IMG/VR virus record: IMGVR_UViG_3300045988_130236
Length of the DNA: 18,664 bases
Source: a virus
Taxonomy: Duplodnaviria > Heunggongvirae > Uroviricota > Caudoviricetes
Strand: one strand, 5' to 3'
Below are positions 1-18,664 of this stretch, piece by piece. The position numbers were made by a program, and so were the translations under genes. The notes beneath the pieces are model-generated. The model had not been told where the DNA came from and did no database searches. It saw only the letters and a program-made list of their open reading frames with translations. Within the stretch, counting starts at the first letter, position 1. Each line of letters starts with the position of its first letter.

Positions 1-1
1 T

Positions 2-2254: not shown

Positions 2255-2743
2255 ATGGATGGTTTATGGGAAAAAATATCGTCATATAATATATTTAATA
2301 ATCTTTTTCCAGGTGCTCTTTTTATTTATCTTCTTGAGAGAATGACGAAGATCGTTTTATCTGGCGATGATTTAATAAAAAATGTTGTCCTCTATTATTT
2401 TGTTGGCTTAGTCATTGGCCGGATTGGTTCTATCGTATTGGAACCTTTTTTAAAACTATCGCGTTTGATTAAGTTTGCTCCTTATAAAGATTATGTGTCA
2501 GCATGTGGTGTGGATGGAAAAATTGAAACTTTGCAAGAGATTGCGAATATGTATAGGACGATATTTTCAATGTCAATTATTCTTTTGGCGACATTGTGCG
2601 TTGTAGGACGGTTTACTGGCGAGACATATGGCTTATCTAAAATAACGTTGGCGGTTTTTGCTATTTTGTTTGTTGTCTCATATATTAAACAAATAAGATA
2701 CATAATATATAGAGTAAATGCTGTTAATAATAAGCTGCCGTAA
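2255..2743 (+). CDS. Small multi-pass inner-membrane protein, unknown function (cargo gene)
   Basis: The ORF track starts at 2111, but the ATG at 2255 has the only good SD (aaggtg, 6 nt upstream). About 162 aa with 3-4 hydrophobic helices (LFPGALFIYLL, VVLYYFVGLVIGRIGSIVL, IFSMSIILLATLCVVGRF, ITLAVFAILFVVSYI). Very AT-rich: 14 G+C in 60 nt at 2281-2340. Confidence 0.6.
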   Translation: MDGLWEKISSYNIFNNLFPGALFIYLLERMTKIVLSGDDLIKNVVLYYFVGLVIGRIGSIVLEPFLKLSRLIKFAPYKDYVSACGVDGKIETLQEIANMYRTIFSMSIILLATLCVVGRFTGETYGLSKITLAVFAILFVVSYIKQIRYIIYRVNAVNNKLP

Positions 2744-2751
2744 GGCAGCTT
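2732..2751. terminator. Hairpin between convergent genes (likely bidirectional intrinsic terminator)
   Basis: aagctgcc gtaa ggcagctt followed by ttt; an 8-bp perfect stem with 4-nt loop between the stop of the + membrane gene (2741-2743) and the stop of the - MBL gene (2757-2759). Confidence 0.55.
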
Positions 2752-2756
2752 TTGAA

Positions 2757-3848: not shown

Positions 3849-4010
3849 TCCATATCCTTATTAAACTGTGAATTAACATGAATCCAAGATGTTAAATCAT
3901 ATGGATAATAACGCAACTTTTCCGCAGTAAACACTGTGAGCGGATTTAATCTCGTCAGAACTAAAAGCAAGTAGTGTGACGAGGGACAATGAGTCTCTTT
4001 GGGGCGTTGG

Positions 4011-4460
4011 CTATGACACTGACGCAACCAGATTAACGCCGTGAGTCAGCAGATTTGTAATCACACCGGCAATGACCCCAGGAGTCCCATCTTTCACCGC
4101 ACTGATCACTTTATCCCCCATCGTTTCATTTCCACCAAGCACCTCGGGTTTTTTGTTAAGAACTGTGAGCGCTTTTTCAGTAAGTCGAACATCGTAAAAA
4201 TACGACTGATGGTCTGTGTTGTACTGAATGTACCCGTTTTCACAGAGAAAATTGAATGTACCTTCAACCACACTACGCAACTGATTTAACGCTTTCATTT
4301 CTGGTGAGTTAAGTTGGTCAAAGTAGTCATCAGGTAGCGCGGCGTTAAATTTGTCGTAGTTAATCACCTGTGGTACGGGAAAATTTTCCCATAGTACTGC
4401 AAAGATTTCCGCCGTTTGTTGGTTAAATAAATCGAGATTTTTCGACATGCAAAATTCCAT
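4011..4460 (-). CDS. Hypothetical cytoplasmic protein, first gene of the cargo operon upstream of the MBL gene; start ambiguous
   Basis: Open frame 4011-4550 (179 aa) with in-frame ATGs at 4550, 4460 and 4448; none has a strong SD. No TM segments, no Walker or other motif I recognise. Same strand as the MBL gene, 162 bp upstream of it. Confidence 0.5.
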   Translation of the reverse strand: MEFCMSKNLDLFNQQTAEIFAVLWENFPVPQVINYDKFNAALPDDYFDQLNSPEMKALNQLRSVVEGTFNFLCENGYIQYNTDHQSYFYDVRLTEKALTVLNKKPEVLGGNETMGDKVISAVKDGTPGVIAGVITNLLTHGVNLVASVS

Positions 4461-4781
4461 TTCTTTTGATAATGAGTGGGTTAAACGCTGGACGAGGCAG
4501 ATTACCACTCTGGCACAAAACAATGATCTTAGTTCACGCGAAGTTGACATATATACCGATAAGCTGGTTGCGCAGGCAACTAGCGTAGAACTCGCTCAGG
4601 TCATCAAGATGCTATTGAATTATATTCGAATGCACAAATAAAATGATCTGTATCAATCTGTTAGGTGTCGTTTGTAAAAATGTGTGGACACGATTGTTCT
4701 GCTAATTGTTGTCAACATGTGCGTCAACAGTGAGATTGGTGCATTGCGCGGCCAGTGACAACTTTAAAAATTGGCCAAAAC

Positions 4782-4806
4782 CGGCACTATGAATGCCGTT
4801 TTTTTT
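4782..4806 (+). terminator. Intrinsic terminator-like hairpin plus T8 tract
   Basis: cggca ctatgaa tgccg followed by tttttttt (4799-4806) and preceded by aaaa; could also act on the minus strand. Sits between the cargo operon upstream region and cos. Confidence 0.4.
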
Positions 4807-4840
4807 GTGTTTTTTTCTGCGATACTCCTATTTTTAGCAG

Positions 4841-4886
4841 TGCATGCAATATGTGCGTGGTTTTGCATGTGCCTAAGTTGCATGTT
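4841..4886. repeat. Cluster of TGCATG(T/C) repeats adjacent to cos (possible terminase recognition elements)
   Basis: tgcatgc at 4841-4847, tgcatgt at 4865-4871 and 4880-4886, with a related gcacctgcat at 4931-4940, all within ~130 bp of cos. Confidence 0.3.
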
Positions 4887-4964
4887 CTGGCTGTGCACCG
4901 TCAGGACGGACGCCCCTCAAAAGTGGTAATGCACCTGCATTAAAACCGACCTATGAAGCGGGCG

Positions 4965-4983
4965 GGCGAGGCGGGGAAAGCAC
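4965..4983. other. cos: cos site (19-nt cohesive end sequence of P2-type phages)
   Basis: ggcgaggcggggaaagcac matches the P2 cohesive-end sequence as I recall it. Position is as expected: between the non-essential cargo region and the 3' end of portal gene Q. Confidence 0.6.
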
Positions 4984-5124
4984 TGCGCGCTGGCGGTGGT
5001 GCTGATTTTATTTTTTCAGCGTCTGAGCGCGTCGTGAAGGCGCTTAGTCTGCCCGTTGAGGCGTTGGTGTGTCTGCGGGGTGTTTTGTGCGGTGGTGAGC
5101 GTGTGAGCGCGTGATGACGGGGTG

Positions 5125-5148
5125 TAAAAAAGCCGCCCGCAGGCGGCG
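5125..5148 (-). terminator. Rho-independent terminator downstream of Q (end of the leftward P-Q late operon)
   Basis: On the minus strand: stem gccgcc/ggcggc with loop (plus 5132-5147) followed by a T6 run (plus-strand aaaaaa at 5126-5131), directly after the Q stop at 5153-5155. Confidence 0.6.
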
Positions 5149-5152
5149 ATGT

Positions 5153-6187
5153 TCAGCCGTTGTCAGTGTCCAGTGAGTAGTTTTTAAAGCGGATGACCTC
5201 CTGACCGAGCCAGCCGTTTATCTCGCGGATCCTGTCCTGTAGCGGGATAAGCTCATTGCGGACAAAGACCTTTGCCACTTTCTCAATATCACCCAGCGAC
5301 CCGACGTTCTCCGGCTTGCCGCCCATCAACTGAAAGGGGATGCGGTGCGCGTCCAGCAGGTCAGCGGCGCTGGCTTTTTTGATATTAAAAAAATCGTCCT
5401 TCGTTGCCACTTCACTGAGCGGGATAATTTTAATGCCGTCGGCTTTCCCCTGCGGGGCATAGAGAAACAGATTTTTAAAGTTGTTGCGGCCTTTCGACTT
5501 GACCATGTTTTCGCGAAGCATTTCGATATCGTTGCGATCCTGCACGGCATCGGTGACGTACATGATATATCCGGCATGAGCGCCGTTTTCGTAATACTTG
5601 CGGCGGAACAGCGTGGCCGACTCATTCAGCCAGGCAGAATTAAGGGCGCTGAGATATTCCGGCAGGCCGTACAGCTCCTGATTAATATCCGGCTCCAGCA
5701 GGTGAAACACGGAGCCGGGCGCGAAGGCTGTCGGCTCGTTGAAGGACGGCACCCACCAGTAAACATCCTCCTCCACGCCACGGCGGGTATATTTTGCCGG
5801 TGAGGTTTCCAGTCTGATGACCTTACCGGTGGTGCTGTAACGCTTTTCCAGAAACGCATTACCGAACACCAGAAAATCCAGCACAAAGCGGCTGAAATCC
5901 TGCTGGGAAAGCCACGGGTGCGGAATAAACGTTGAAGCCAGAATATTACGTTTGACGTAAATCGGTGAGCTGTGATGTACGGCAGCACGCAGGCTTTTTG
6001 CCAGACCGGTAAAGCTGACCGGTGGCTCATACCATCTGCCGTTACTGATGCACTCGACGTAATCCAGAATGTCACGGCGGTCGAGTACCGGCACCGGTTC
6101 ACCAAAGGTGAATGCCTCCATTTTCGGGGCGCTGGCGGTCATTTTTTTTGCCGCAGGTTGCGGTGTTTTCCCTTTTTTCTTGCTCAT
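5153..6187 (-). CDS. Q: Portal protein (P2 gpQ-like)
   Basis: 344 aa, starts MSKKKGKTPQPAAKK; length and sequence fit P2 Q. Its start overlaps the P stop (TGATG). Confidence 0.92.
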   Translation of the reverse strand: MSKKKGKTPQPAAKKMTASAPKMEAFTFGEPVPVLDRRDILDYVECISNGRWYEPPVSFTGLAKSLRAAVHHSSPIYVKRNILASTFIPHPWLSQQDFSRFVLDFLVFGNAFLEKRYSTTGKVIRLETSPAKYTRRGVEEDVYWWVPSFNEPTAFAPGSVFHLLEPDINQELYGLPEYLSALNSAWLNESATLFRRKYYENGAHAGYIMYVTDAVQDRNDIEMLRENMVKSKGRNNFKNLFLYAPQGKADGIKIIPLSEVATKDDFFNIKKASAADLLDAHRIPFQLMGGKPENVGSLGDIEKVAKVFVRNELIPLQDRIREINGWLGQEVIRFKNYSLDTDNG

Positions 6188-7959
6188 CAGTAAAACTCCA
6201 GAATGGTGGATGTCAGCGGGGTGCTGATACCGGCGGTGAGTGGCTCATTTAACAGGGCGTGCATGGTCGCCCAGGCGAGGTCGGCGTGGCTGGCTTCCTC
6301 GCTGCGGCTGGCCTCATAGGTGGCGCTGCGTCCGCTGCTGGTCATGGTCTTGCGGATAGCCATAAACGAGCTGGTGATGTCGGTGGCGCTGACGTCATAT
6401 TCCAGACAGCCACGGCGGATAACGTCTTTTGCCTTGAGCACCATTGCGGTTTTCATTTCCGGCGTGTAGCGGATATCGCGCGCGGCGGGATAGAACGAGC
6501 GAACGAGCTGGAACACGCCGACACCGAGGCCGGTGGCATCAATTCCGATGTATTCGACGTTGTATTTTTCGGTGAGTTTGCGGATGGATTCAGCCTGGGT
6601 GGCAAAGTCCATGCCTTTCCACTGGTGACGCTCAAGTATTCTGAATTTGCCACCGGCCACCACCGGCGGTGCCAGCACCACGCATCCGGCACTGTCGCCA
6701 CGGTGTGACGGGTCGTAACCAATCCATACCGGACGTGAGCCGAACGGATTGGCGGCAAACGGCGCATAGTCTTCCCATTCTTCCAGCGTGTCGACCATGC
6801 AGCGTTGCAGCTCCTCGAACGGGAACACCGACGCCTTGTCGTCAACAAATTCACACATGAACAGGTTTTTAAAATCGTCGGCGCTGTTTTCACGTTTGAG
6901 CTGCTCAATGTCGAACAGTGTGCAGCCACCTTTCAGGGCATCCTCAATGGTGACAATCTGCCGCCACTGGCCGTCCGCACAGAGAAGACCACCGGCAAGG
7001 GCGTTATGACTGACGTCGATTTCCACGCGTTCGGCGGCGCTGGCGCGTCCCCGGTTGAACAGTTCACCTGACCAGAACGGGTAGGCGTCGTGCGCCAGCG
7101 TGGACGGGGTGGAGAAATAGGTCGAGCGCAGGTGACTCTGTGAGGCCATACCTGATGCTACCTTACGCAGTACCTGAAAATTCGGGATCCAGAAAATCTC
7201 GTCGACGTACAGGTCGCCGTTATGGCTCTGTGCGGTGTTGGAGTTGGTGCCGAGAAAAATCAGTTTTGCACCGTTATTGCCCAGGACAATCGGGTCACCG
7301 GTCAGGTCAACGTCAACCAGCCGGGCAAAGGCAATGATGTATTCGCGGAACACATACGCCTGCGTTTTACTGGCCGACAGAAAAATCTGGTTATGGCCGG
7401 TTTTCAGGGCGCGCAGCAGCGCCTCGCGGGAAAAATAAAACGTCGCGCCAATCTGGCGGGATTTCAGGATATCGCGGATGCGGTGCTCAAGCCCGGCGCG
7501 ATACCAGTGCAACTGATATTCGAAAGACTGCTCAAAGAAAATCTGCTCCAGCTTTTCGATGGCCTCGTCGCTGAAAAAATTCTTTTTCGGTTTGCGACGC
7601 CCGCCTTTGTTGCGGTTAGCGACGTTCGGATTAAGGTCTGCCTCGTTGCCGGTCTGACTGTAGCGGTTTACCCGTGCCAGTCGTTCAATCTGGCGTCCGA
7701 GCAGGTCAATTTCCTTGAAGTCACCGCCGGTTTTCTGCGGTTTTATGATGAGCTGGGTCAGCCGCGCTTCCAGACTCATTTCGACACGGCTGATGGGAGC
7801 AACGCTGTCCCAGCCGTCGCGCTGTTTCCAGCTCTGCACCGTCGGGCGTTTCATCTGCAACATGGCGGCAATCTGCGGCACGGAAAACCCCTGCCAGTAC
7901 AGCAGCGCCGCCTGACGACGCGGGTCGTGTAAAAGAGTGGTGTCTGTGGTGATGGTCAT
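6187..7959 (-). CDS. P: Terminase large (ATPase) subunit (P2 gpP-like)
   Basis: 590 aa from the ATG at 7959 (MTITTDTTLL); the ORF track extends 10 codons further to 7989. Length matches P2 P; divergent from O across a shared control region. Confidence 0.92.
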   Translation of the reverse strand: MTITTDTTLLHDPRRQAALLYWQGFSVPQIAAMLQMKRPTVQSWKQRDGWDSVAPISRVEMSLEARLTQLIIKPQKTGGDFKEIDLLGRQIERLARVNRYSQTGNEADLNPNVANRNKGGRRKPKKNFFSDEAIEKLEQIFFEQSFEYQLHWYRAGLEHRIRDILKSRQIGATFYFSREALLRALKTGHNQIFLSASKTQAYVFREYIIAFARLVDVDLTGDPIVLGNNGAKLIFLGTNSNTAQSHNGDLYVDEIFWIPNFQVLRKVASGMASQSHLRSTYFSTPSTLAHDAYPFWSGELFNRGRASAAERVEIDVSHNALAGGLLCADGQWRQIVTIEDALKGGCTLFDIEQLKRENSADDFKNLFMCEFVDDKASVFPFEELQRCMVDTLEEWEDYAPFAANPFGSRPVWIGYDPSHRGDSAGCVVLAPPVVAGGKFRILERHQWKGMDFATQAESIRKLTEKYNVEYIGIDATGLGVGVFQLVRSFYPAARDIRYTPEMKTAMVLKAKDVIRRGCLEYDVSATDITSSFMAIRKTMTSSGRSATYEASRSEEASHADLAWATMHALLNEPLTAGISTPLTSTILEFY

Positions 7960-8132
7960 GAATACCTCGCCGTGATGAATACACGGCAAGGCTACTGAGT
8001 CGCGCCCCGCGATTCGCTAAGGTGCTGTTGTGTCAGTGATAAGCCATCCGGGACTGATGGCGGAGGATGCGCATCGTCGGGAAACTGATGCCGACATGTG
8101 ACTCCTCTAATCACTATTCAGGACTCCTGACA
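7960..8132. promoter_or_regulatory. Divergent late promoter region (expected Ogr-dependent P_P and P_O)
   Basis: Intergenic region between divergent P and O, where P2 places its late promoters. I found no exact TGT-N12-ACA activator dyad by eye, so this rests on gene organisation only. Confidence 0.35.
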
Positions 8133-8987
8133 ATGGCAAAAAAAGTCTCAAAATTCTTTCGTATCGGCGTTGAGGGTGACACCTGTGACGGGCGTGTCAT
8201 CAGTGCGCAGGATATTCAGGAAATGGCCGAAACCTTTGACCCGCGTGTCTATGGTTGCCGCATTAACCTGGAACATCTGCGCGGCATCCTGCCTGACGGT
8301 ATTTTTAAGCGTTATGGCGATGTGGCCGAACTGAAGGCCGAAAAGATTGACGATGATTCGGCGCTGAAAGGCAAATGGGCGCTGTTTGCGAAAATCACCC
8401 CGACCGATGACCTTATCGCGATGAACAAGGCCGCGCAGAAGGTCTACACCTCAATGGAAATTCAGCCGAACTTTGCCAACACCGGCAAATGTTATCTGGT
8501 GGGTCTGGCCGTCACCGATGACCCGGCAAGCCTCGGCACGGAATACCTGGAATTCTGCCGCACGGCAAAACACAACCCCCTGAACCGCTTCAAATTAAGC
8601 CCTGAAAACCTGATTTCAGTGGCAACGCCTGTTGAGCTGGAATTTGAAGACCTGCCTGAAACCGTGTTCACCGCCCTGACCGAAAAGGTGAAATCCATTT
8701 TTGGCCGCAAACAGGCCAGCGATGACGCCCGTCTGAATGACGTGCATGAAGCGGTGACCGCTGTCGCTGAGCATGTGCAGGAAAAACTGAGCGCCACTGA
8801 GCAGCGCCTCGCTGAGATGGAAACCGCCTTTTCCGCACTTAAGCAGGAGGTGACTGACAGGGCGGATGAAACCAGCCAGGCATTCACCCGCCTGAAAAAC
8901 AGTCTCGACCACACCGAAAGTCTGACCCAGCAGCGCCGCAGCAAGGCCACCGGTGGTGGCGGTGACGCCCTGATGACGAACTGCTGA
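8133..8987 (+). CDS. O: Capsid scaffolding protein (P2 gpO-like)
   Basis: 284 aa from the ATG at 8133 (MAKKVSKFFRIGVEGDT); length matches P2 O. The ORF-track start at 8067 is an upstream in-frame extension. Confidence 0.9.
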   Translation: MAKKVSKFFRIGVEGDTCDGRVISAQDIQEMAETFDPRVYGCRINLEHLRGILPDGIFKRYGDVAELKAEKIDDDSALKGKWALFAKITPTDDLIAMNKAAQKVYTSMEIQPNFANTGKCYLVGLAVTDDPASLGTEYLEFCRTAKHNPLNRFKLSPENLISVATPVELEFEDLPETVFTALTEKVKSIFGRKQASDDARLNDVHEAVTAVAEHVQEKLSATEQRLAEMETAFSALKQEVTDRADETSQAFTRLKNSLDHTESLTQQRRSKATGGGGDALMTNC

Positions 8988-9045
8988 CCGGCGTCAGTCA
9001 GTCCGGGAAAACCTTCACGATTAACCCTTAATTTCAGGAAAAACT

Positions 9046-10119
9046 ATGCGCCAGGAAACCCGCTTTAAATTTAATGCCTACCTGTCCCGTGTTGCCGAAC
9101 TGAACGGCATCGACGCCGGTGATGTGTCGAAAAAATTCACCGTTGAACCGTCGGTCACCCAGACCCTGATGAACACCATGCAGGAGTCCTCTGACTTTCT
9201 GACCCGCATCAACATTGTGCCGGTCAGCGAAATGAAAGGGGAAAAAATTGGCATCGGTGTCACCGGCTCCATCGCCAGCACCACCGACACCGCCGGTGGC
9301 ACCGAGCGTCAGCCGAAGGACTTCTCGAAGCTGGCGTCAAACAAGTACGAATGCGACCAGATTAACTTCGATTTTTATATCCGCTACAAAACGCTGGACC
9401 TGTGGGCGCGTTATCAGGATTTCCAGCTCCGTGTCCGTAACGCCATTATCAAACGCCAGTCCCTTGATTTCATCATGGCCGGTTTTAACGGCGTGAAGCG
9501 TGCAGAAACCTCTGACCGCAGCAGCAATCCGATGCTGCAGGATGTGGCGGTCGGCTGGCTGCAGAAATACCGCAATGAAGCACCGGCGCGCGTGATGAGC
9601 AAGGTCACTGACGAGGAAGGTCACACGACCTCTGAGGTCATCCGCGTGGGTAAGGGCGGTGATTATGCCAGCCTTGACGCACTGGTGATGGATGCGACCA
9701 ACAACCTGATTGAACCGTGGTATCAGGAAGACCCTGACCTTGTGGTAATTGTGGGTCGTCAGCTACTGGCGGACAAGTATTTCCCCATCGTCAACAAAGA
9801 GCAGGACAACAGCGAAATGCTGGCCGCTGACGTCATCATCAGCCAGAAACGCATCGGTAACCTGCCGGCGGTACGCGTCCCGTACTTCCCGGCGGATGCG
9901 ATGCTCATCACGAAGCTGGAAAACCTGTCCATCTACTACATGGATGACAGCCATCGCCGCGTGATTGAGGAAAACCCGAAACTCGACCGCGTGGAGAACT
10001 ACGAGTCAATGAACATTGATTACGTGGTGGAAGACTACGCCGCCGGTTGCCTGGTGGAAAAAATTAAGGTCGGTGATTTCTCCACACCGGCTAAAGCGAC
10101 CGCAGAGCCGGGAGCGTAA
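9046..10119 (+). CDS. N: Major capsid protein (P2 gpN-like)
   Basis: 357 aa, SD agga upstream, MRQETRFKFNAYLSRVAELNGIDAGD; size and position fit P2 N. Confidence 0.92.
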   Translation: MRQETRFKFNAYLSRVAELNGIDAGDVSKKFTVEPSVTQTLMNTMQESSDFLTRINIVPVSEMKGEKIGIGVTGSIASTTDTAGGTERQPKDFSKLASNKYECDQINFDFYIRYKTLDLWARYQDFQLRVRNAIIKRQSLDFIMAGFNGVKRAETSDRSSNPMLQDVAVGWLQKYRNEAPARVMSKVTDEEGHTTSEVIRVGKGGDYASLDALVMDATNNLIEPWYQEDPDLVVIVGRQLLADKYFPIVNKEQDNSEMLAADVIISQKRIGNLPAVRVPYFPADAMLITKLENLSIYYMDDSHRRVIEENPKLDRVENYESMNIDYVVEDYAAGCLVEKIKVGDFSTPAKATAEPGA

Positions 10120-10122
10120 CCG

Positions 10123-10866
10123 ATGACGAGTCCCGCACAGCGCCACATGATGCGGGTCTCGGCAGCGATGACCGCGCAGCGGGAAGCCGCCCCGCTGCGA
10201 CATGCAACTGTCTATGAGCAGATGCTGGTCAAGCTGGCCGCAGACCAGCGCACACTGAAAGCGATTTATTCAAAAGAGCTTAAGGCCGCGAAAAAACGCG
10301 AACTGCTGCCGTTCTGGTTGCCGTGGGTGAACGGCGTGCTGGAGCAGGGCAAAGGTGCACAGGATGACATTCTGATGACGGTCATGCTGTGGCGTCTGGA
10401 TACCGGCGATATTGCCGGTGCGCTGGAGATTGCCCGTTATGCCCTGAAGTACGGTCTGACCATGCCGGGTAAACACCGCCGCACCCCGCCGTACATGTTC
10501 ACCGAGGAGGTGGCGCTCGCGGCCATGCGCGCCCACGCTGCCGGTGAGTCTGTGGATACCCGCCTGCTGACGGAGACCCTTGCACTGACCGCCACGGCAG
10601 ACATGCCTGATGAAGTGCGCGCAAAGCTGCACAAAATCACCGGTCTGTTTCTGCGTGACGCTGGTGATGCCGCCGGTGCGCTGGCTCACCTGCAACGTGC
10701 GACACAGCTCGACTGTCAGGCAGGCGTCAAAAAAGAGATTGAACGACTGGAGCGGGAGCTGAAACCGAAGCCGGAGCCGCAGCCCAAAGCGGCCACCCGC
10801 GCCCCGCGTAAGACCCGGAGCGTGACACCGGCAAAACGTGGACGCCCGAAAAAGAAAGCCAGTTAA
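10123..10866 (+). CDS. M: Terminase small (endonuclease) subunit (P2 gpM-like)
   Basis: 247 aa, directly after N, with a basic C-terminal tail (RKTRSVTPAKRGRPKKKAS); matches P2 M in length and order. Confidence 0.9.
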   Translation: MTSPAQRHMMRVSAAMTAQREAAPLRHATVYEQMLVKLAADQRTLKAIYSKELKAAKKRELLPFWLPWVNGVLEQGKGAQDDILMTVMLWRLDTGDIAGALEIARYALKYGLTMPGKHRRTPPYMFTEEVALAAMRAHAAGESVDTRLLTETLALTATADMPDEVRAKLHKITGLFLRDAGDAAGALAHLQRATQLDCQAGVKKEIERLERELKPKPEPQPKAATRAPRKTRSVTPAKRGRPKKKAS

Positions 10867-10965
10867 CAACCGAATGCGCCCCGCGCCAGGGCGGCACGCC
10901 GGTCAGTGAGGGTGAATCACCTGACACTGCACCGGCGTCCACCGCCCGACTTTTCAGAGGTAGTC

Positions 10966-11475
10966 ATGATGACGCTGATTATTCCGCGAAAGGAGGCTCC
11001 AGTGTCCGGTGAGGGTACGGTGGTCATCCCGCAACCGGCAGGCGACGAGCCGGTGATTAAAAACACGTTCTTTTTTCCCGATATCGACCCGAAGCGCGTC
11101 CGGGAACGTATGCGCCTTGAGCAGACCGTCGCCCCCGCCCGTCTGCGTGAGGCCATCAAGTCAGGCATGGCTGAAACAAATGCGGAGCTGTACGAGTACC
11201 GCGAACAGAAAATTGCCGCCGGTTTTACGCGTCTGGCGGACGTTCCGGCGGACGACATCGACGGTGAAAGTATCAAAGTTTTTTACTACGAGCGCGCCGT
11301 GTGTGCGATGGCGACCGCGTCGCTTTATGAGCGTTACCGCGGCGTGGATGCCAGTGCGAAAGGCGACAAGAAGGCCGACAGCATTGACAGCACCATTGAT
11401 GAGCTGTGGCGGGATATGCGCTGGGCAGTGGCGCGCATCCAGGACAAGCCGCGCTGCATCGTGAGTCAAATCTGA
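10966..11475 (+). CDS. L: Head completion/stabilisation protein (P2 gpL-like)
   Basis: 169 aa from the ATG at 10966 (MMTLIIPRKEAP) with SD gagg 6 nt upstream; the ORF-track start at 10906 is an extension. Confidence 0.88.
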   Translation: MMTLIIPRKEAPVSGEGTVVIPQPAGDEPVIKNTFFFPDIDPKRVRERMRLEQTVAPARLREAIKSGMAETNAELYEYREQKIAAGFTRLADVPADDIDGESIKVFYYERAVCAMATASLYERYRGVDASAKGDKKADSIDSTIDELWRDMRWAVARIQDKPRCIVSQI

Positions 11476-11678
11476 TGAAGACCTTTGCGCTACAGGGCGA
11501 CACGCTCGACGCCATTTGTGTCCGGTATTACGGGCGCACTGAGGGCGTGGTTGAGGCCGTGCTCGCCGCAAATCCGGGACTGGCTGAACTGGGTGCGGTG
11601 CTGCCGCACGGCACCGCCGTCGAACTGCCCGACGTTCAGACCGCGCCCGTGGCTGAAACTGTCAATCTGTGGGAGTAA
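11475..11678 (+). CDS. X: Small tail-associated protein (P2 gpX-like)
   Basis: 67 aa (MKTFALQGDTLDAICVRYYG); start overlaps the L stop (tgATGa). Size fits P2 X. Confidence 0.85.
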   Translation: MKTFALQGDTLDAICVRYYGRTEGVVEAVLAANPGLAELGAVLPHGTAVELPDVQTAPVAETVNLWE

Positions 11679-11681
11679 CGC

Positions 11682-11963
11682 ATGACAGCAGAAGAAAAAA
11701 GCGTCCTGTCGCTTTTCATGATTGGGGTGCTGATTGTTGTCGGCAAGGTGCTTGCCGGTGGTGAACCCATCACCCCGCGTCTGTTTATCGGGCGCATGTT
11801 GCTCGGTGGTTTTGTCTCGATGGTTGCCGGTGTTGTTCTGGTGCAGTTTCCTGACCTGTCACTGCCTGCGGTGTGCGGCATCGGCTCCATGCTGGGTATC
11901 GCCGGTTATCAGGTGATTGAGATTGCCATTCAGCGCCGCTTTAAGGGCAGGGGGAAACAGTAA
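11682..11963 (+). CDS. Y: Holin (P2 gpY-like)
   Basis: 93 aa with two or three TM segments and a charged C-terminus (QRRFKGRGKQ); sits immediately before the endolysin. Confidence 0.88.
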   Translation: MTAEEKSVLSLFMIGVLIVVGKVLAGGEPITPRLFIGRMLLGGFVSMVAGVVLVQFPDLSLPAVCGIGSMLGIAGYQVIEIAIQRRFKGRGKQ

Positions 11964-12460
11964 TGCCGGTAATTAACACGCATCAGAATATCGCTGCCTT
12001 TCTCGACATGCTGGCCGTGTCCGAAGGGACGGCGAATCACCCGCTGACGAAAAACCGGGGCTATGACGTGATAGTCACCGGACTGGACGGGAAGCCGGAA
12101 ATCTTCACCGACTACAGTGACCACCCGTTCGCACATGGCCGACCGGCGAAGGTGTTTAACCGTCGCGGTGAAAAATCCACGGCCTCCGGTCGCTATCAGC
12201 AGCTTTACCTGTTCTGGCCGCACTACCGCAAACAGCTTGCCCTGCCGGATTTCAGTCCGTTGTCGCAGGACAGACTCGCCATTCAGTTGATCCGCGAACG
12301 CGGTGCACTGGATGACATCCGGGCGGGACGCATTGAGCGCGCCATTTCACGCTGTCGCAATATCTGGGCGTCCCTGCCGGGTGCCGGTTACGGTCAGCGT
12401 GAGCATTCACTGGAAAAACTGGTCACCGTCTGGCGTACCGCTGGCGGCGTACCGGCTTAA
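11963..12460 (+). CDS. K: Endolysin, lysozyme-like (P2 gpK-like)
   Basis: 165 aa, start overlaps the Y stop (taATG); size and order match P2 K. Confidence 0.9.
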   Translation: MPVINTHQNIAAFLDMLAVSEGTANHPLTKNRGYDVIVTGLDGKPEIFTDYSDHPFAHGRPAKVFNRRGEKSTASGRYQQLYLFWPHYRKQLALPDFSPLSQDRLAIQLIRERGALDDIRAGRIERAISRCRNIWASLPGAGYGQREHSLEKLVTVWRTAGGVPA

Positions 12461-12474
12461 ACGGAGTAAACACC

Positions 12475-12900
12475 ATGAAGAAATTATCCCTTTCACTGAT
12501 GCTGAATGTGTCGCTGGCGCTGATGCTTGCACTGTCCCTGATTTACCCGCAGAGCGTGGCCGTCAATTTTGTCGCCACCTGGGCGATTCTGGCGACGGTT
12601 ATCTGTGTGGTTGCCGGTGGTGTCGGCGTGTATGCCACTGAGTATGTGCTGGAACGCTACGGGTGGGAGCTGCCACCGGAGTCGCTGGCCGTGAAGATTG
12701 TCATGTCGCTGTTTTTGCAGCCGGTGCCGTGGTGCAGACGGGCGGCGGCTCTGGTGGTGATGGTGGCGACATTTATCTCGCTGGTCGCTGCCGGGTGGAT
12801 TTTTACCGCGCTGATTTATCTCGTGGCGTCGGTGTTCTTCCGGCTGATACGTACGGCCTGCCGTCAACGTCTTGAGGGGCGGGAACCATGTCAAAGCTGA
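12475..12900 (+). CDS. lysA: Lysis-timing membrane protein (P2 LysA-like)
   Basis: 141 aa, four hydrophobic segments; position after K as in P2. Confidence 0.85.
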   Translation: MKKLSLSLMLNVSLALMLALSLIYPQSVAVNFVATWAILATVICVVAGGVGVYATEYVLERYGWELPPESLAVKIVMSLFLQPVPWCRRAAALVVMVATFISLVAAGWIFTALIYLVASVFFRLIRTACRQRLEGREPCQS

Positions 12901-13313
12901 TGATTGTGCTGGTTGTGTTGTTATCGCTGGCGGTGGCGGGGCTGTTTCTGGCGAAGCATGAAAACGCCAGCCTGCGCGCCTCGCTGGACAGGGTGAACAA
13001 CGTCGCCAGTGAACAGCAGACGACCATCACCATGCTGAAAAACCAGCTTCATGTTGCACTCACCAGGGCAGACAAAAACGAGCTGGCGCAGGTGGCACTG
13101 CGTCAGGAACTGGAGAACGCCGCGAAACGTGAAGCACAGCGCGAGAAAACCATCACGAGGTTACTGAATGAAAACGAGGATTTTCGCCGCTGGTATGGCG
13201 CTGACCTGCCTGATGCTGTGCGCCGGTTGCACCAGCGTCCGGCCTGCACTGACGCCAGTGATTGTCGCCAACGCCTGCCCGAAAGTGAGCCTTTGCCCGA
13301 TGCCGGGCAGTGA
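12888..13313 (+). CDS. lysB: Rz-like inner-membrane spanin (P2 LysB-like)
   Basis: 141 aa with an N-terminal TM anchor (MSKLMIVLVVLLSLAVAGLF) followed by a coiled-coil-like region. Confidence 0.85.
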   Translation: MSKLMIVLVVLLSLAVAGLFLAKHENASLRASLDRVNNVASEQQTTITMLKNQLHVALTRADKNELAQVALRQELENAAKREAQREKTITRLLNENEDFRRWYGADLPDAVRRLHQRPACTDASDCRQRLPESEPLPDAGQ

Positions 13314-13458
13314 CCCGCAGACGAACGGCGATTTAAGTGCCGATATCCGGCAGCTTGAGAACGCGCTGGCACGCTGTGCCAGCCAGGTAAAAATGATTAA
13401 ACACTGTCAGGACGAAAACGATGCTCAAACCCGACAGCCTGCGCAGGGCGCTGACTGA
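13168..13458 (+). CDS. lysC: Rz1-like outer-membrane lipoprotein spanin (P2 LysC-like), embedded in a different frame of lysB
   Basis: 96 aa with a lipoprotein signal and lipobox (MLCAGC) and a proline-rich region; overlaps the lysB 3' half out of frame. Confidence 0.82.
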   Translation: MKTRIFAAGMALTCLMLCAGCTSVRPALTPVIVANACPKVSLCPMPGSDPQTNGDLSADIRQLENALARCASQVKMIKHCQDENDAQTRQPAQGAD

Positions 13459-13888
13459 TGCCGTCACGGTGCTGAAAACTAACCCCGATATGCTGCGGAT
13501 ATTCGTGGATAACGGGAGTATTGCCTCCACACTGGCGGCGTCGTTGTCATTCGAAAAGCGTTACACGCTCAATGTCATTGTGACCGACTTTACCGGTGAT
13601 TTTGACCTGCTCATCGTGCCGGTGCTGGCGTGGCTGCGGGAAAATCAGCCCGACATCATGACCACCGACGCAGGCCAGAAAAAGGGCTTCACGTTTTATG
13701 CAGACATCAACAATGACAGCAGCTTTGATATCAGCATCAGCCTGATGCTGACCGAGCGCACGCTGGTCAGTGAGGTGGACGGCGCACTGCATGTGAAGAA
13801 TATCCCGGAACCCCAGCCGCCGGAGCCGGTCACCCGCCCGATGGAGCTGTATATCAATGGCGAACTGGTGAGCAAGTGGGATGAATGA
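13421..13888 (+). CDS. R: Tail completion protein (P2 gpR-like)
   Basis: 155 aa; size and order match P2 R. Confidence 0.88.
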   Translation: MLKPDSLRRALTDAVTVLKTNPDMLRIFVDNGSIASTLAASLSFEKRYTLNVIVTDFTGDFDLLIVPVLAWLRENQPDIMTTDAGQKKGFTFYADINNDSSFDISISLMLTERTLVSEVDGALHVKNIPEPQPPEPVTRPMELYINGELVSKWDE

Positions 13889-14333
13889 GTTTAAGCGTTT
13901 TGAAGACCGGCTGACCGGACTGATTGAATCGCTGTCACCGTCAGGGCGTCGACGACTGAGCGCCGAACTGGCGAAACGTCTGCGTCAGAGTCAGCAGCGT
14001 CGGGTGATGGCACAGAAAGCCCCTGACGGCACACCCTACGCGCCACGCCAGCAGCAGAGCGCCAGAAAAAAGACCGGTCGCGTTAAGCGAAAAATGTTTG
14101 CGAAACTTATCACCAGTCGTTTTTTGCATATCCGCGCCAGCCCGGAGCAGGCATCAATGGAATTTTACGGCGGAAAGTCACCGAAAATCGCCAGTGTGCA
14201 TCAGTTTGGTCTGTCGGAAGAAAACCGGAAAGACGGTAAGAAAATTGATTATCCGGCGCGCCCTCTGCTCGGCTTCACCGGTGAGGATGTGCAGATGATT
14301 GAAGAGATTATTCTGGCTCACCTCGACCGTTAG
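13881..14333 (+). CDS. S: Tail completion protein (P2 gpS-like)
   Basis: 150 aa; start overlaps the R stop; size and order match P2 S. Confidence 0.88.
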   Translation: MNEFKRFEDRLTGLIESLSPSGRRRLSAELAKRLRQSQQRRVMAQKAPDGTPYAPRQQQSARKKTGRVKRKMFAKLITSRFLHIRASPEQASMEFYGGKSPKIASVHQFGLSEENRKDGKKIDYPARPLLGFTGEDVQMIEEIILAHLDR

Positions 14334-14364
14334 TTGTGCCATTCCCGACACCTCATCGTCACAT

Positions 14365-14387
14365 TGCCGCCGGTATGACCCGGCGGC
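14365..14387 (+). terminator. GC-rich hairpin between S and V (possible operon boundary terminator or attenuator)
   Basis: tgccgccgg tatga ccggcggca, a 9-bp stem. There is no U-tract after it, so function is uncertain. It sits where P2 separates the O..S and V..G late operons. Confidence 0.3.
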
Positions 14388-14399
14388 ATCCTTCCCGTT

Positions 14400-15035
14400 A
14401 TGAACACTCTCGCAAATATTCAGGAACTCGCGCGCGCACTGCGCAACATGATCCGCACCGGCATTATCGTCGAAACCGACCTTAACGCCGGTCGCTGCCG
14501 TGTGCAGACCGGCGGCATGTGCACCGACTGGCTTCAGTGGCTGACCCATCGTGCCGGACGTTCGCGTACATGGTGGGCACCTTCCGTGGGGGAACAGGTG
14601 CTGATTCTGGCCGTGGGCGGTGAACTCGACACGGCGTTCGTTCTGCCGGGGATTTATTCCGGCGATAACCCCGCGCCGTCTGCGTCGGCGGATGCCCTGC
14701 ATATCCGTTTCCCTGACGGGGCGGTGATTGAGTATGAACCCGAAACCAGTGCACTCACGGTAAGCGGAATTAAAACGGCCAGCGTGACGGCTTCTGATTC
14801 TGTTACTGCCACGGTGCCGGTGGTCACGGTGAAAGCATCAACCCGCGTCACCCTGGACACACCGGAGGTGGTCTGCACCAACAGGCTGATTACCGGCACG
14901 CTGGAAGTGCAGAAGGGCGGGACGATGCGCGGCAACATTGAACACACCGGCGGTGAACTCTCATCAAACGGTAAGGTACTGCATACCCATAAACACCCCG
15001 GCGACAGCGGCGGCACAACCGGGAGTCCTCTATGA
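14400..15035 (+). CDS. V: Baseplate central spike/hub protein (P2 gpV-like)
   Basis: 211 aa (MNTLANIQELARALRNMIRTGII); matches P2 V in size and position. Confidence 0.9.
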   Translation: MNTLANIQELARALRNMIRTGIIVETDLNAGRCRVQTGGMCTDWLQWLTHRAGRSRTWWAPSVGEQVLILAVGGELDTAFVLPGIYSGDNPAPSASADALHIRFPDGAVIEYEPETSALTVSGIKTASVTASDSVTATVPVVTVKASTRVTLDTPEVVCTNRLITGTLEVQKGGTMRGNIEHTGGELSSNGKVLHTHKHPGDSGGTTGSPL

Positions 15036-15379
15036 CAGCGCGTTATCTCGGAATGAATCGCAGTGATGGCCTGACTGTCACTGACCTTGAGCATATCAGC
15101 CAGAGTATCGGCGATATCCTGCGCACACCGGTCGGCTCACGGGTGATGCGTCGTGATTACGGCTCGTTGCTGGCGTCAATGATTGACCAGCCGCAGACCC
15201 CGGCGCTTGAGTTGCAGATTAAGGTCGCCTGTTACATGGCGGTGCTGAAATGGGAACCCCGCGTCACCCTGTCATCCGTCACCACTGAGCGCAGTTTTGA
15301 CGGGAGAATGACGGTCACGTTAACCGGCCAGCACAACGACACCGGCCAGCCACTTTCGTTAACCATCCCTGTGAGTTGA
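15032..15379 (+). CDS. W: Baseplate wedge protein (P2 gpW / T4 gp25-like)
   Basis: 115 aa; overlaps the V stop (ATGA); order V-W-J-I as in P2. Confidence 0.9.
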   Translation: MTARYLGMNRSDGLTVTDLEHISQSIGDILRTPVGSRVMRRDYGSLLASMIDQPQTPALELQIKVACYMAVLKWEPRVTLSSVTTERSFDGRMTVTLTGQHNDTGQPLSLTIPVS

Positions 15380-15383
15380 AACC

Positions 15384-16292
15384 ATGCCGATTATCGACCT
15401 GAACCAGCTACCCGCACCGGATGTGGTCGAGGAGCTGGACTTTGAAACCATTCTCGCTGAACGCAAGGCGACACTGATTTCCCTTTACCCGGAAGACCAG
15501 CAGGAGGCGGTCGCCCGTACCCTGACGCTGGAATCTGAGCCTCTCGTCAAACTGCTGGAGGAAAATGCTTATCGTGAGCTTATCTGGCGTCAGCGTGTGA
15601 ATGAGGCCGCACGGGCGGTGATGCTGGCCTGTGCCGCCGGTAATGACCTTGATGTGATTGGTGCCAATTACAACACCACGCGCCTGATTATCACCCCGGA
15701 AGATGATTCGACCATTCCGCCGACACCGGCAGTGATGGAATCTGACACCGATTATCGTCTGCGTATTCAGCAGGCGTTTGAGGGCTTAAGCGTCGCCGGG
15801 TCGGTGGGAGCCTATCAGTATCATGGTCGCAGTGCTGACGGGCGTGTCGCGGATATCTCTGTCACCAGTCCGTCTCCGGCCTGCGTCACTATCTCCGTGC
15901 TGTCACGTGAAAATAACGGCGTCGCATCCGAAGACCTGCTGGCCGTGGTGCGTAACGCCCTTAATGGCGAGGACGTCAGGCCGGTGGCCGACCGAGTGAC
16001 CGTGCAGTCTGCCGCCATTGTTGAATATCAGATAAACGCCACGCTTTACCTTTACCCAGGTCCTGAAAGCGAACCCATCCGCGCTGCTGCCGTGAAAAAA
16101 CTGGAAGCGTACATCACGGCACAGCACCGGCTGGGGCGCGACATCCGTCTGTCTGCCATTTATGCCGCTTTGCATGTGGAAGGCGTGCAGCGTGTCGAGC
16201 TGACTGCACCACTGGCCGACATCGTGCTCAACAGTACGCAGGCGTCTTTCTGCACCGAATACAGCGTCGTGACCGGAGGCTCGGATGAGTGA
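15384..16292 (+). CDS. J: Baseplate protein (P2 gpJ-like)
   Basis: 302 aa; size and position match P2 J. Confidence 0.9.
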   Translation: MPIIDLNQLPAPDVVEELDFETILAERKATLISLYPEDQQEAVARTLTLESEPLVKLLEENAYRELIWRQRVNEAARAVMLACAAGNDLDVIGANYNTTRLIITPEDDSTIPPTPAVMESDTDYRLRIQQAFEGLSVAGSVGAYQYHGRSADGRVADISVTSPSPACVTISVLSRENNGVASEDLLAVVRNALNGEDVRPVADRVTVQSAAIVEYQINATLYLYPGPESEPIRAAAVKKLEAYITAQHRLGRDIRLSAIYAALHVEGVQRVELTAPLADIVLNSTQASFCTEYSVVTGGSDE

Positions 16293-16896
16293 TTCGCGCC
16301 TGCTGCCGACCGGCTCATCACCGCTTGAAGTCGCCGCCGCAAGCGCCTGTGCGGAAATTGAAAAAACGCCGGTCAGTATTCGTGAGCTGTGGAACCCGGA
16401 TACCTGTCCGGCAAATCTGCTGCCGTGGCTGGCGTGGTCATTTTCGGTTGACCGCTGGGATGATAAGTGGCCGGAAGCGACAAAACGCGCTGTTATCCGC
16501 GATGCCTATTTCATTCACTGCCATAAGGGCACTATAGGCGCAATCCGTCGTGTGGTGGAGCCGCTCGGCTATCTGATTGAGGTGAGGGAGTGGTGGCAGC
16601 TCAACGAGGAGCCGGGGACGTTCCGCATCGTTGTTGGCGTGCTTGAGCAGGGTATTACCGAGGAAATGTATCAGGAGCTGGAGCGCCTCGTTGCTGATGC
16701 AAAACCGGCAAGCCGCCATCTGACGGGACTGGCTATCAGTTTAAGTACAACCGGCAACATTTTTGCCGGTGCGGGATGCTATCACGGTGACGCCCTGACG
16801 GTTTATCCCTACACCCCGGAGGCCATTATTGTCGGAGGGGATTATTTCCCGGCCTCGGCCATTCATTTAATTGATAACCTGAGAGTAAACGCATGA
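16285..16896 (+). CDS. I: Baseplate protein (P2 gpI-like)
   Basis: 203-aa ORF overlapping the J stop and the H start. Longer than my recollection of P2 I (~176 aa), so the start may differ. Confidence 0.8.
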   Translation: MSDSRLLPTGSSPLEVAAASACAEIEKTPVSIRELWNPDTCPANLLPWLAWSFSVDRWDDKWPEATKRAVIRDAYFIHCHKGTIGAIRRVVEPLGYLIEVREWWQLNEEPGTFRIVVGVLEQGITEEMYQELERLVADAKPASRHLTGLAISLSTTGNIFAGAGCYHGDALTVYPYTPEAIIVGGDYFPASAIHLIDNLRVNA

Positions 16897-18035
16897 CAGT
16901 GAAATACTACGCCATTCTGACTAATCAGGGCGCGGCACGGCTGGCTAACGCGACGATGCTCGGCAGTAAGCTGAATCTGACGCAAATGGCCGTTGGTGAT
17001 GCGAATGGTGTCTTGCCGACACCAGACCCGGCACAGACAAAACTGATTAACCAGAAACGCATCGCGCCGCTGAATCTTCTGAGTGTTGACCCGAACAACC
17101 AGAGCCAGATTATTGCGGAGCAAATCATCCCTGAGAACGAGGGCGGATTCTGGATCCGTGAGATTGGGCTTTATGATGATGAAGGCGTACTCATTGCGGT
17201 GGCGAACTGCCCGGAAACGTACAAACCGCAGTTGCAGGAAGGCAGTGGTCGTACCCAGACTATCCGCATGATTCTGGTTGTCACGAATACCGAAGCTATC
17301 ACGCTGAAAATCGACCCGTCGGTGGTACTGGCAACCCGTAAATACGTGGATGATGAAGTCCTGGAATTAAAGCTGTATGTGGATGACCAGATGAGAAACC
17401 ACATTGCCGCACAGGATCCTCATACCCAGTATGCGCAGAAACATAATCCGACATTTACCGGAGAACCAAAAGCGCCGACGCCTGCCGCAGGAAATAACAC
17501 CACGCGGATTGCGACCACTGAGTTTGTTCAGGCCGCTATTACCGCTCTGATTAACGGTGCGCCAGCCACACTGGACACACTGAAAGAAATTGCCGCGGCC
17601 ATTAACAATGACCCGAAATTCAGCACCACCATTAACAATGCGCTGTCAGGTAAGCAGCCACTGGATGAGACGCTGACTCATTTGAGCGGAAAGGATGTTG
17701 CTGGTCTTCTCGCATACCTTGGTTTGGGAGAAGCGGCAAAACGGAATGTAGGTAACGGGCAAAACCAAATTCCGGATATGGCGGCATTTGCCAGTTCACT
17801 TTCATCAACGGGTTTTCAAAAACTCCCTTCAGGTCTGATTATTCAGTGGGGTATTGTCAGTGGAGCATCAAACTATACGGTGACTTACCCGGTAACATTC
17901 CCAAATCGTTCACTTGCGCTGTTGGCTGTGCCACATACAACGTCGGTGGCTGGTATATCTGCAATGGGCATAGCGAACTGTTCTGATATCAGCAAATCAC
18001 AGTTCTATATAATTGTTGGCGGTATATCTCAGTAG
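16893..18035 (+). CDS. H: Tail fibre protein (P2 gpH-like), 3' end interrupted by IS2; stop codon supplied by the IS2 terminus
   Basis: 380 aa. The N-terminal ~150 aa have the conserved gpH baseplate-attachment pattern ([22 protein letters not shown]...YKP...EGSGR). The C-terminal part contains a fibre-tip-like motif ([11 protein letters not shown]). The ORF ends at a TAG (18033-18035) that is the first three bases of the IS2 left end. Confidence 0.85.
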
Positions 18036-18123
18036 ACTGGCCCCCTGAATCTCCAGACAACCAGTATCACTTAAATAAGTGATAGTCTTAATACTAGTTT
18101 TTAGACTAGTCATTGGAGAACAG

Positions 18124-18489
18124 ATGATTGATGTCTTAGGGCCGGAGAAACGCAGACGGCGTACCACACAGGAAAAGATCGCAATTGTTCAGCAGAGCTT
18201 TGAACCGGGGATGACGGTCTCCCTCGTTGCCCGGCAACATGGTGTAGCAGCCAGCCAGTTATTTCTCTGGCGTAAGCAATACCAGGAAGGAAGTCTTACT
18301 GCTGTCGCCGCCGGAGAACAGGTTGTTCCTGCCTCTGAACTTGCTGCCGCCATGAAGCAGATTAAAGAACTCCAGCGCCTGCTCGGCAAGAAAACGATGG
18401 AAAATGAACTCCTCAAAGAAGCCGTTGAATATGGACGGGCAAAAAAGTGGATAGCGCACGCGCCCTTATTGCCCGGGGATGGGGAGTAA
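18124..18489 (+). CDS. insC: IS2 transposase OrfA (InsC), HTH DNA-binding protein
   Basis: 121 aa from the ATG at 18124 with SD ggaga upstream; the ORF-track start at 18079 is an extension. Confidence 0.92.
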
Positions 18490-18664
18490 GCTTAGTCAGC
18501 CGTTGTCTCCGGGTGTCGCGTGCGCAGTTGCACGTCATTCTCAGACGAACCGATGACTGGATGGATGGCCGCCGCAGTCGTCACACTGATGATACGGATG
18601 TGCTTCTCCGTATACACCATGTTATCGGAGAGCTGCCCACGTATGGTTATCGTCGGGTATGGGC
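18447..18664 (+). CDS. insD: IS2 transposase OrfB (InsD), 5' part; expressed by -1 frameshift from InsC; truncated by window end
   Basis: Reading the -1 frame from the aaaaaag slip site gives [41 protein letters not shown]..., the N-terminus of the IS2 DDE transposase. Confidence 0.85.

Follow-up and report, generated by a model that had tools for sequence, protein, structure and literature searches.

The tail-fibre gene H of this P2-like E. coli prophage is interrupted near its 3' end by the insertion sequence IS2, and we consider it likely that this reflects a very recent, simple insertion that cost the phage one fibre variant and not the phage itself. IS2 probably disables only one of two alternative fibre tips, and it probably exerts a polar effect on the downstream assembly gene. 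IS2 is a common element, and as an event the insertion is ordinary. The window, that is, the whole stretch of DNA analysed here (18,664 nt), is a complete metagenome contig that ends 632 nt into IS2, so that the remainder of the element lies outside it. The features located in the window are collected in Table 1.

Table 1. Features of the H–IS2 region, in window coordinates
Feature	Position	Strand	Basis or remark
Truncated tail-fibre gene H of the P2-like prophage, 380 aa	16893..18035	+	ORF, Pfam, alignment to MLI108K1
Left 26-bp crossover site, TTCTCGCATACC TT GGTTTGGGAGAA (TTCTCGCATACCTTGGTTTGGGAGAA)	17707..17732	+	Core dinucleotide at 17719-17720
Left arm of the 80-nt inverted repeat bounding the invertible segment	17716..17795	+	Repeat search on the isogenic reference contig L001
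Remaining Gp53-like C-terminal receptor-binding domain, variable tip 'Sv'	17820..18032	+	Without the last 17 residues, GEIVKHERSCFWVAIGV
Predicted 5-bp target-site duplication CTCAG, left copy	18028..18032	+	Predicted; right copy outside the window
IS2, left part (IS3 family)	18033..18664	+	Alignment to K-12 IS2A; transposase genes oriented as H
IS2 left inverted repeat (IRL), 42 bp, TAGACTGGCCCCCTGAATCTCCAGACAACCAATATCACTTAA	18033..18074	+	41/42 positions identical to the published IRL
IS2 orfA (insC), 121 aa	18124..18489	+	PF01527 HTH_Tnp_1, E 1.8e-19
IS2 A6G programmed -1 frameshift motif, AAAAAAG	18441..18447	+	Motif search

The junction between H and IS2 was placed to the nucleotide. As the earlier note on this DNA had stated, the H reading frame runs uninterrupted into the left end of IS2, and both the ORF and the alignment to IS2A of E. 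coli K-12 (NC_000913.3, 381260-382590) agree on this point. The last codon of H is CAG (Q380), and the TAG stop that follows it (18033-18035) consists of the first three bases of IS2. From position 18033 to its end, the window aligned with IS2A from the first annotated base onwards (TAGACTGG...), with two differences in 632 nt (18064, G/A; 18638, C/A). Homology to the uninterrupted H of strain MLI108K1 ends exactly at 18032; since IS2 begins at the very next base, it is the IS terminus that supplies the stop codon. The same junction is seen in a contig of a separate, independent ENA assembly (L003), which is identical to window positions 13404-18086.

The element itself resembles K-12 IS2A throughout the part that is visible. 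The IRL, orfA/insC, the A6G site and the start of orfB are common to both copies; the annotated start of K-12 insD corresponds to window position 18447, and the OrfB -1 frame is open up to the window end. Compared with the published 42-bp IRL sequence (PMC3299598), the window copy carries G in place of A at IRL position 32, which is window position 18064. The IS2 of strain FAHZZU6014 matches window positions 18023-18232 at 100%, including this variant position. K-12 IS2A is 1331 bp long, with a 5-bp duplication (ATTAC) at its flanks. Because such duplications also border five of the six other complete copies of IS2 that were inspected, the CTCAG that immediately precedes IS2 in the window is predicted to be the left copy of such a duplication.

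Comparison with an uninterrupted prophage revealed how little of H is missing. Window positions 1-18032 correspond to positions 465-18496 of E. coli MLI108K1 (NZ_CP116994.1) with no mismatches. The intact H of MLI108K1 encodes 397 aa (1194 nt), and the window H, the length of which had been correctly given as 380 aa, is 100% identical to its first 1140 nt. Thus, IS2 removes only 17 residues and no large distal tip. The earlier proposal that the distal receptor-binding tip had been cut off stands insofar as IS2 interrupts H; the loss is confined to those 17 residues, however, and most of the domain lies upstream of the insertion. Similarly, the PSGLIIQWG motif is indeed present near the end of H (aa 312-320), but it is followed by 60 residues and not by about 50. 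Uninterrupted homologues stop elsewhere, the 397-aa H of MLI108K1 among them.

The PF12571 domain (Phage_tail_fib) spans residues 1-150 of H (E 1e-62), and H is placed after the baseplate genes J and I, according to the annotation of the identical reference. In MLI108K1, H is followed 8 nt downstream by a 131-aa Caudo_TAP chaperone gene, which agrees with the expectation that the assembly gene would be found beyond IS2. None of H, the chaperone and a small hypothetical gene received a specific name from NCBIfam. The order V-W-J-I-H with the chaperone next is the same in P2, and the PF12571 N-terminal domain is retained in H here. The H protein of P2 is much longer (~669-670 aa), and P2 is not known to have an invertible segment. 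Since H is naturally 397 aa long in the present prophage and carries a tip that differs from that of P2, the length of P2 H is the wrong yardstick; judged from the sequences compared, H of this prophage group is naturally short.

The 17 lost residues belong to the C-terminal receptor-binding domain. In the window H, PF21882 (Gp53-like_C) covers aa 310-369 and profile positions 1-59 of 84, whereas in the intact H it covers positions 1-83 of 84. A complete Gp53-like domain ending at the C-terminus is therefore absent from the window H, as is the terminal W-A-G motif. The end of the profile is reached by 154 family members, 128 of which stop exactly at the natural C-terminus. The terminal W-x-A-x-G motif is nearly invariant, the divergent tip B included, and the lost residues are conserved in all homologues examined. 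Among 266 family members, H ends at this residue only in the window allele and in an e14-type IS2 allele. The latter belongs to an e14-like element from other samples (contigs L009 and L010), where IS2 lies at the identical nucleotide in a homologous tip that is 98.2% identical.

An AF2 model of the intact tip was obtained with a 50-sequence alignment from a library-wide profile search (pLDDT 85.6); an earlier AlphaFold run with a 13-sequence alignment reached a pLDDT of 40 and was discarded. In the model, the missing residues form the last two beta-strands (119-122 and 127-133), and the 10-residue blocks that contain these strands have a mean pLDDT of 87-97. A Foldseek search matched the modelled fold to AP22 gp53 (PDB 4MTM) and to the C-terminal part of R1/R2 pyocin fibres (PDB 6CL5, 6CL6, 6CT8 and 6CXB), with E values from 1e-7 to 9e-6 and a probability of 1.00. 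All of these structures have the same fold as the modelled tip, at a sequence identity of only 20-23%; the similarity to AP22 gp53 extends to the SGLIIQWG motif. Unlike the AP22 and pyocin domains, the window tip lacks the two terminal strands. Since the lost residues are conserved and form the last two strands of a confident model, the truncated tip, tip A, is probably dead.

IS2 lies 313 bp inside an invertible segment of the Gin/Cin/Pin type. The left crossover site is located within H at the boundary between its constant and variable parts, and homology between different tips and contexts starts there. It pairs with TTCTCCCAAACCAACGTTTTATGGAA at positions 6394-6419 of the isogenic reference contig L001 (window coordinates equal L001 coordinates plus 12892), on which the repeat arms occupy positions 4824-4903 and 6331-6410, with 84% complementarity. 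The order within the segment of the uninterrupted reference is tip A, its chaperone, a second chaperone and tip B (opposite strand). A gene for a Gin-like serine invertase adjoins the segment in the isogenic reference, and its product aligned with Mu Gin (3UJ3) over residues 1-184 of 197 (E 8.5e-94). The partner site, tip B with its chaperone and the invertase were all seen in the isogenic reference (L001 and L008); in the source organism they would lie beyond the window end.

Both orientations of the segment occur in nature. Strain GZ04-0086 carries the same prophage at 99.9% identity, but its 1.58-kb segment has precisely the opposite orientation to that of MLI108K1 (99.94% identity over 1584 nt). 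When the reference was inverted in silico between the two cores, an in-frame 399-aa H and a 147-aa chaperone were obtained, and both simulated inversion junctions were found in GZ04-0086. The H gene of GZ04-0086 is annotated as a pseudogene, probably owing to an assembly or frameshift issue.

Phase-variable inversions are documented in P2-like prophages of E. coli (PMC4272514). In the G/Gin system of Mu, C/Cin of P1, P/Pin of e14 and the P2-like loci of EPEC E2348/69 (PMC4272514), a constant part is joined to one of two tips. As seen in the reference genomes, the present locus shares with these Din-family systems the 26-bp crossover site, a Caudo_TAP chaperone for each tip, the head-to-head arrangement of the two sets and the adjacent invertase. 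Unlike the known Din-type systems, the segment is short (1.58 kb, or ~2.9 kb with IS2) and one of its tips bears IS2; in addition, its tips are Gp53-like domains and not of the Mu S/S' type. The right half of the cassette is known from the reference genomes, while the window holds the left site.

We propose the following course of events. A very recent transposition brought IS2 into H, within its variable 3' part, in an otherwise intact P2-like E. coli prophage. It would have entered after codon 380 of 397 with its IRL towards H, whereupon the first TAG of the IRL ended the frame. Deprived of two conserved terminal strands, tip A would be unable to fold or trimerise, and the 1.3-kb IS would uncouple the tip-A chaperone from the late operon. 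In the present orientation, virions would then be made without working fibres. Once the invertase flips the segment, H would be brought in frame with tip B, which IS2 has left untouched, to give a 399-aa fibre, and the chaperone of tip B would come next. The prophage would probably remain viable and would retain one of the two host-range states.

The earlier note had concluded that the prophage is probably unable to make functional tail fibres, and that its cargo would be maintained as host-domesticated defence. Since inversion should still yield an intact 399-aa fibre, neither conclusion is supported. The former holds at most in one orientation, as tip B and its chaperone should be unaffected. 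As for the latter, the absence of any difference from the intact prophage in 18,032 nt indicates that the insertion is very recent, with no sign of long-term domestication of the cargo. A prophage with no fibres at all, in which IS2 splits H well before the distal tip and the cargo is kept as defence, could be argued from the interruption of H, from the position of its chaperone gene beyond IS2 and from a candidate defence pair (PDC-M48A/B) at 2111-3848 of the window. We regard this as very unlikely: the natural length of 397 aa, and hence a loss of 17 aa, largely refutes it; in the reference, a second tip and chaperone lie within the same invertible segment; the identity over 18,032 nt leaves no time for domestication; and the remaining late genes of the window do not differ from those of the intact phage. 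It is still less credible that the 380-aa H remains functional and that the insertion is neutral apart from possible polarity, a suggestion we hold to be extremely unlikely. Although ~70% of the Gp53-like domain profile is kept and the rest of the fibre is untouched, the missing residues comprise the C-terminal motif that is best conserved in the family, together with two confidently modelled strands, and the window and e14-type IS2 alleles are the only ones among the 266 family members in which H ends here.

Two further explanations concern the junction itself. Only the left junction is visible, as the contig ends in IS2. It could border a deletion or inversion mediated by IS2, through which the rest of the fibre cassette, and perhaps the tail genes as well, were lost or moved elsewhere; the prophage would then be truly defective. 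The predicted right junction (...GGGGCAAATCCA-CTCAG-GGAGAAATTGTC, in which the IS2 end is followed by CTCAG) had no exact match in metagenome and genome contigs, as a rearrangement would predict. However, the left junction likewise had no exact match in metagenome, viral and species-representative genome contigs. The null result for the right junction is therefore uninformative, since the source contig itself seems to be missing from those collections. Nothing positive points to a rearrangement, simple insertions flanked by 5-bp duplications account for five of the six other complete copies of IS2 that were inspected, and we judge a deletion or inversion to be highly improbable. Alternatively, IS2 may in reality reside in the e14-like tip, and the assembler may have joined it to the P2-like H via the shared tip, in which case H would be intact. 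The window is a metagenome contig, an e14-like locus does have IS2 at the same nucleotide of its closely similar tip, and junction probes found the P2-type junction in none of 5,426 complete E. coli genomes. Nevertheless, the window tip matches the P2-type allele without a difference as far as 18032. Five tip positions distinguish it from the known e14-type allele, the nearest being 81 nt from the junction, and the two also differ within IS2 at window position 18064. The exact shared run is only 112 nt, which is expected to be shorter than typical short reads, and two assembly pipelines yielded the same unbranched path. We regard a chimera as very unlikely, and favour a simple insertion of IS2 into tip A of the P2-like prophage.

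It is conceivable, though doubtful, that TATATCTCAG|G is a sequence-preferred target which IS2 has entered on separate occasions in two or more unrelated invertible cassettes, one P2-like and one e14-like, each time removing the same one of the two alternative tips. If so, IS2 would repeatedly serve as a natural 'lock' on the switching of host range, and this might be favoured since the phage is spared. The flanks of eight other IS2 copies look similar (GGTATA..CAG-like) in a sample that is biased, as the copies were picked for BLAST alignments that ran on into the flank; the one case worth noting is the fimB-fimE copy, with a 10/10 match. Targeting through mimicry of the IS2 ends was rejected, since the best local score against the inverted repeats was reached by 213 of 2000 shuffles. 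That the same site was used in two cassettes offers a modest clue to how IS2 selects its targets.

The H gene of this P2-like group calls for caution in annotation, as it is short by nature and has a flip-switch cassette at its end. To measure it against the length of P2 H, or to declare a prophage dead from one interrupted tip, would be mistaken. The candidate defence cargo PDC-M48 is probably still carried by an active, very recently altered phage. Read as a simple insertion into one tip, the event shows how an IS can abolish one of the two states of a host-range switch and yet leave the phage alive.

Alignment to K-12 IS2A placed the start of IS2 homology at the element's very first base, window position 18033, with two substitutions in 632 nt, and homology to the uninterrupted H gene stopped exactly at 18032. 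The TAG stop of the tail-fibre gene H, which encodes 380 aa here, is therefore IS2's own first triplet. Thus, the observation of the earlier note, an IS2 in H whose terminus donates the stop codon, was confirmed, while its interpretation held only in part and requires important corrections. The window copy has OrfA, the A6G frameshift site and OrfB at their expected places; K-12 IS2A, by its annotation a mobile element of 1331 bp, is flanked by the duplication ATTAC. The first 42 nt of the window IS2 agree with the published left inverted repeat at 41 positions, and the promoter PIRL has been placed in this left end (PMC3299598). An A>G variant lies at window 18064, position 32 of the left inverted repeat, and the region of this variant is matched at 100% by the IS2 of another genome, FAHZZU6014. 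An ENA assembly contig is identical to window 13404-18086, including the H/IS2 junction.

To what extent H is shortened can be read from E. coli MLI108K1, whose intact prophage shows zero differences from the window over the 18,032 nt preceding IS2. Its H gene (1194 nt, 397 aa) continues after ...GGISQ with GEIVKHERSCFWVAIGV and then stops, and a 131-aa Caudo_TAP assembly chaperone begins 8 nt past H; O157:H7 F8092B has the same 397-aa arrangement. Since intact H has 397 aa, IS2 cuts off 17 residues and not the large distal tip whose loss had been proposed, implicitly by the yardstick of P2 H (about 669 aa), which does not apply here. The complete identity over 18 kb also makes the IS2 event very recent, which leaves no support for the view that the cargo is already host-domesticated.

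The 17 residues are conserved. Pfam Gp53-like_C covers positions 1-83 of 84 in the intact protein vs 1-59 in the window protein. All homologues examined at 61-95% identity, from sources named as E. coli, Klebsiella and Enterobacter, keep the C-terminus ...ER[SA]C[FY]W[VLF]A[IVL]G[VIY], with W, A and G nearly invariant, and the alternative tip, only 34% identical, likewise ends WWAVGE. In a family of 266 members, collected by searching 1.8 billion representative proteins with a profile and re-scoring, 154 reach the profile end and 128 of these stop exactly there; besides window H, only one member ends ...GGISQ. When the intact tip was modelled with AlphaFold from an alignment of 50 sequences (mean pLDDT 85.6), the missing residues formed the last two beta-strands (119-122 and 127-133), with mean pLDDT of 87-97 in the 10-residue blocks over them. 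In structure searches, this model matched the fibre protein gp53 of AP22 (4MTM) and, in their C-terminal part, the fibres of R1/R2 pyocins. From conservation and model, we infer that truncated tip A would be unable to fold properly.

In the intact reference, the 3' end of H sits in an invertible segment, which the earlier note overlooked. The segment is bounded by 80-nt inverted repeats containing 26-bp Din-type crossover sites. From one site to the other it comprises tip A and chaperone A, then, encoded on the opposite strand, chaperone B and tip B. Directly beyond the segment is the gene of a 197-aa serine recombinase whose residues 1-184 align with Mu Gin (3UJ3; E 8.5e-94). Between the right crossover site and this invertase gene, MLI108K1 has a 104-aa hypothetical gene that is absent from O157:H7 F8092B, being present in some prophage copies and missing in others; we take it to sit at about P2's accessory-gene spot between G and FI. 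When the reference was inverted computationally between the cores of the two crossover sites, H stayed in frame, reached 399 aa and ended in WWAVGE, and a 147-aa chaperone came next. Both simulated junctions are present in GZ04-0086, whose copy of the same prophage (99.9% identity) has the 1.58-kb segment in exactly the opposite orientation (99.94% over 1584 nt). Phase-variable inversions in E. coli P2-like prophages are documented (PMC4272514). In the complete genome of the sister isolate MLI108K2, the segment mixes both orientations and is full of indels (partly reversed, with 31 gap openings at 95% identity), which yields pseudogene annotations; a consensus of mixed-orientation reads would fit this pattern. 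IS2 starts 313 bp inside the invertible segment.

The other family member ending ...GGISQ, the 201-aa fibre protein P0106, is encoded in an e14-like remnant adjoining phoE-proBA, found in a GenBank draft assembly and a Logan assembly. There, IS2 lies at the identical nucleotide and in the same orientation, in a 98.2% homologous tip, and shortens the fibre from the usual 218 aa. The two tips differ at five positions, the IS2 copies differ at window 18064, and homology to the window starts only at the crossover site, which suggests either that IS2 struck a hot spot independently in each or that a cassette already carrying IS2 moved between prophages by recombination. Among 5,426 complete E. coli genomes, none had the H/IS2 junction; should this be a hot spot, the allele is scarce or soon lost. 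In the fimB-fimE spacer of FAHZZU6014, an unrelated IS2 with the 5-bp duplication CTCAG has the left flank TATATCTCAG, equal to the 10 nt of window 18023-18032. This hints at some target sequence preference of IS2, the other flanks inspected being a biased choice. The target does not resemble the ends of IS2 to a significant degree.

Most likely, IS2 made a simple insertion, with a predicted duplication CTCAG at 18028-18032. This leaves H in the contig orientation without its terminal strands and would put 1.3 kb of IS between chaperone A and the late operon, where IS polarity in general leads one to expect a polar effect. After inversion, the constant part of H would be joined to tip B, which IS2 has not touched, with chaperone B behind it and IS2 further downstream in the other strand orientation. 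With IS2 included, the segment would measure about 2.9 kb, a size comparable to those of the Mu G (about 3 kb) and P1 C (about 4 kb) segments. As tip B and chaperone B would be available to H after inversion, the earlier view that functional fibres are probably not made is not supported: the prophage has probably lost one of two host-range states and retained the ability to make fibres.

An assembly chimera is conceivable, given the metagenome source and the e14-like locus with IS2 at the same position, but the two alleles share an exact stretch of only 112 nt across the junction, and the same junction came out of two assemblies. With the right junction beyond the window, an IS2-mediated rearrangement is possible in place of simple insertion. 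That the truncated fibre still functions is unlikely in view of the conservation of the lost residues and the structure model.

The longest contig encoding this exact H protein has 18,664 nt and is of JGI/IMG origin, so the window is an entire metagenome contig; it starts within replication gene A of a P2-like prophage and breaks off inside IS2. In several complete E. coli chromosomes (NZ_CP116994.1 and others), the first base of the window falls at position 465, and the chromosome of MLI108K1, at least, has the first base of the prophage gene A as its annotated start; apparently, software that sets chromosome starts mistook the phage replication gene for the start gene of the chromosome. Gene A and portal gene Q are separated by cargo that matches PDC-M48, a candidate defence system in PADLOC. 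An adjoining 179-aa ORF, without a match in Pfam and PADLOC searches, could be a third cargo component.

Features of the window and of the compared loci
Feature	Position	Strand	Remarks
Replication gene A	8-1837		PF05840
Cargo region	2111-4550		
PDC-M48A match	2111-2743	+	E 1.7e-50; without Pfam match
PDC-M48B match	2757-3848	-	E 1e-100; metallo-beta-lactamase fold; RefSeq annotation ComEC/Rec2
179-aa ORF	4011-4550	-	RefSeq: shorter 'hypothetical protein' CDS, 4011-4448
Late genes Q, P	after cargo	-	
O, N, M, L, X, lysis genes, R, S, V, W, J, I, H	after Q, P	+	
H ORF	16893-18035		380 aa
Left crossover site	17707-17732		26 bp
IS2	final 632 nt of window		
104-aa gene, MLI108K1	L001 6546-6863	-	
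Hybrid segment, MLI108K2	L006 359-2746		NZ_CP117001.1
e14-like locus, GenBank draft	L009 10001-10730		NCBI GCA_910573295.1, CAJSWZ010000031.1; compared with window 17708-18159
e14-like locus, Logan	L010 1231-1863		SRR15321626; compared with window 17708-18159
fimB-fimE spacer, FAHZZU6014	L011 about 1480-2850		

All components are already known, and nothing is new in kind: the IS2 is nearly identical to the K-12 copy, the N-terminal domain of H is that of a P2-type fibre, its 3' cassette is of the Gin-type invertible class and its tip is gp53/R-pyocin-like. That an IS lands in the tail-fibre gene of a prophage is an ordinary event; in another complete genome, IS2 lies in a different gene of this kind. 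The small lead that remains concerns the target choice of IS2 and the IS as a lock on a host-range switch.
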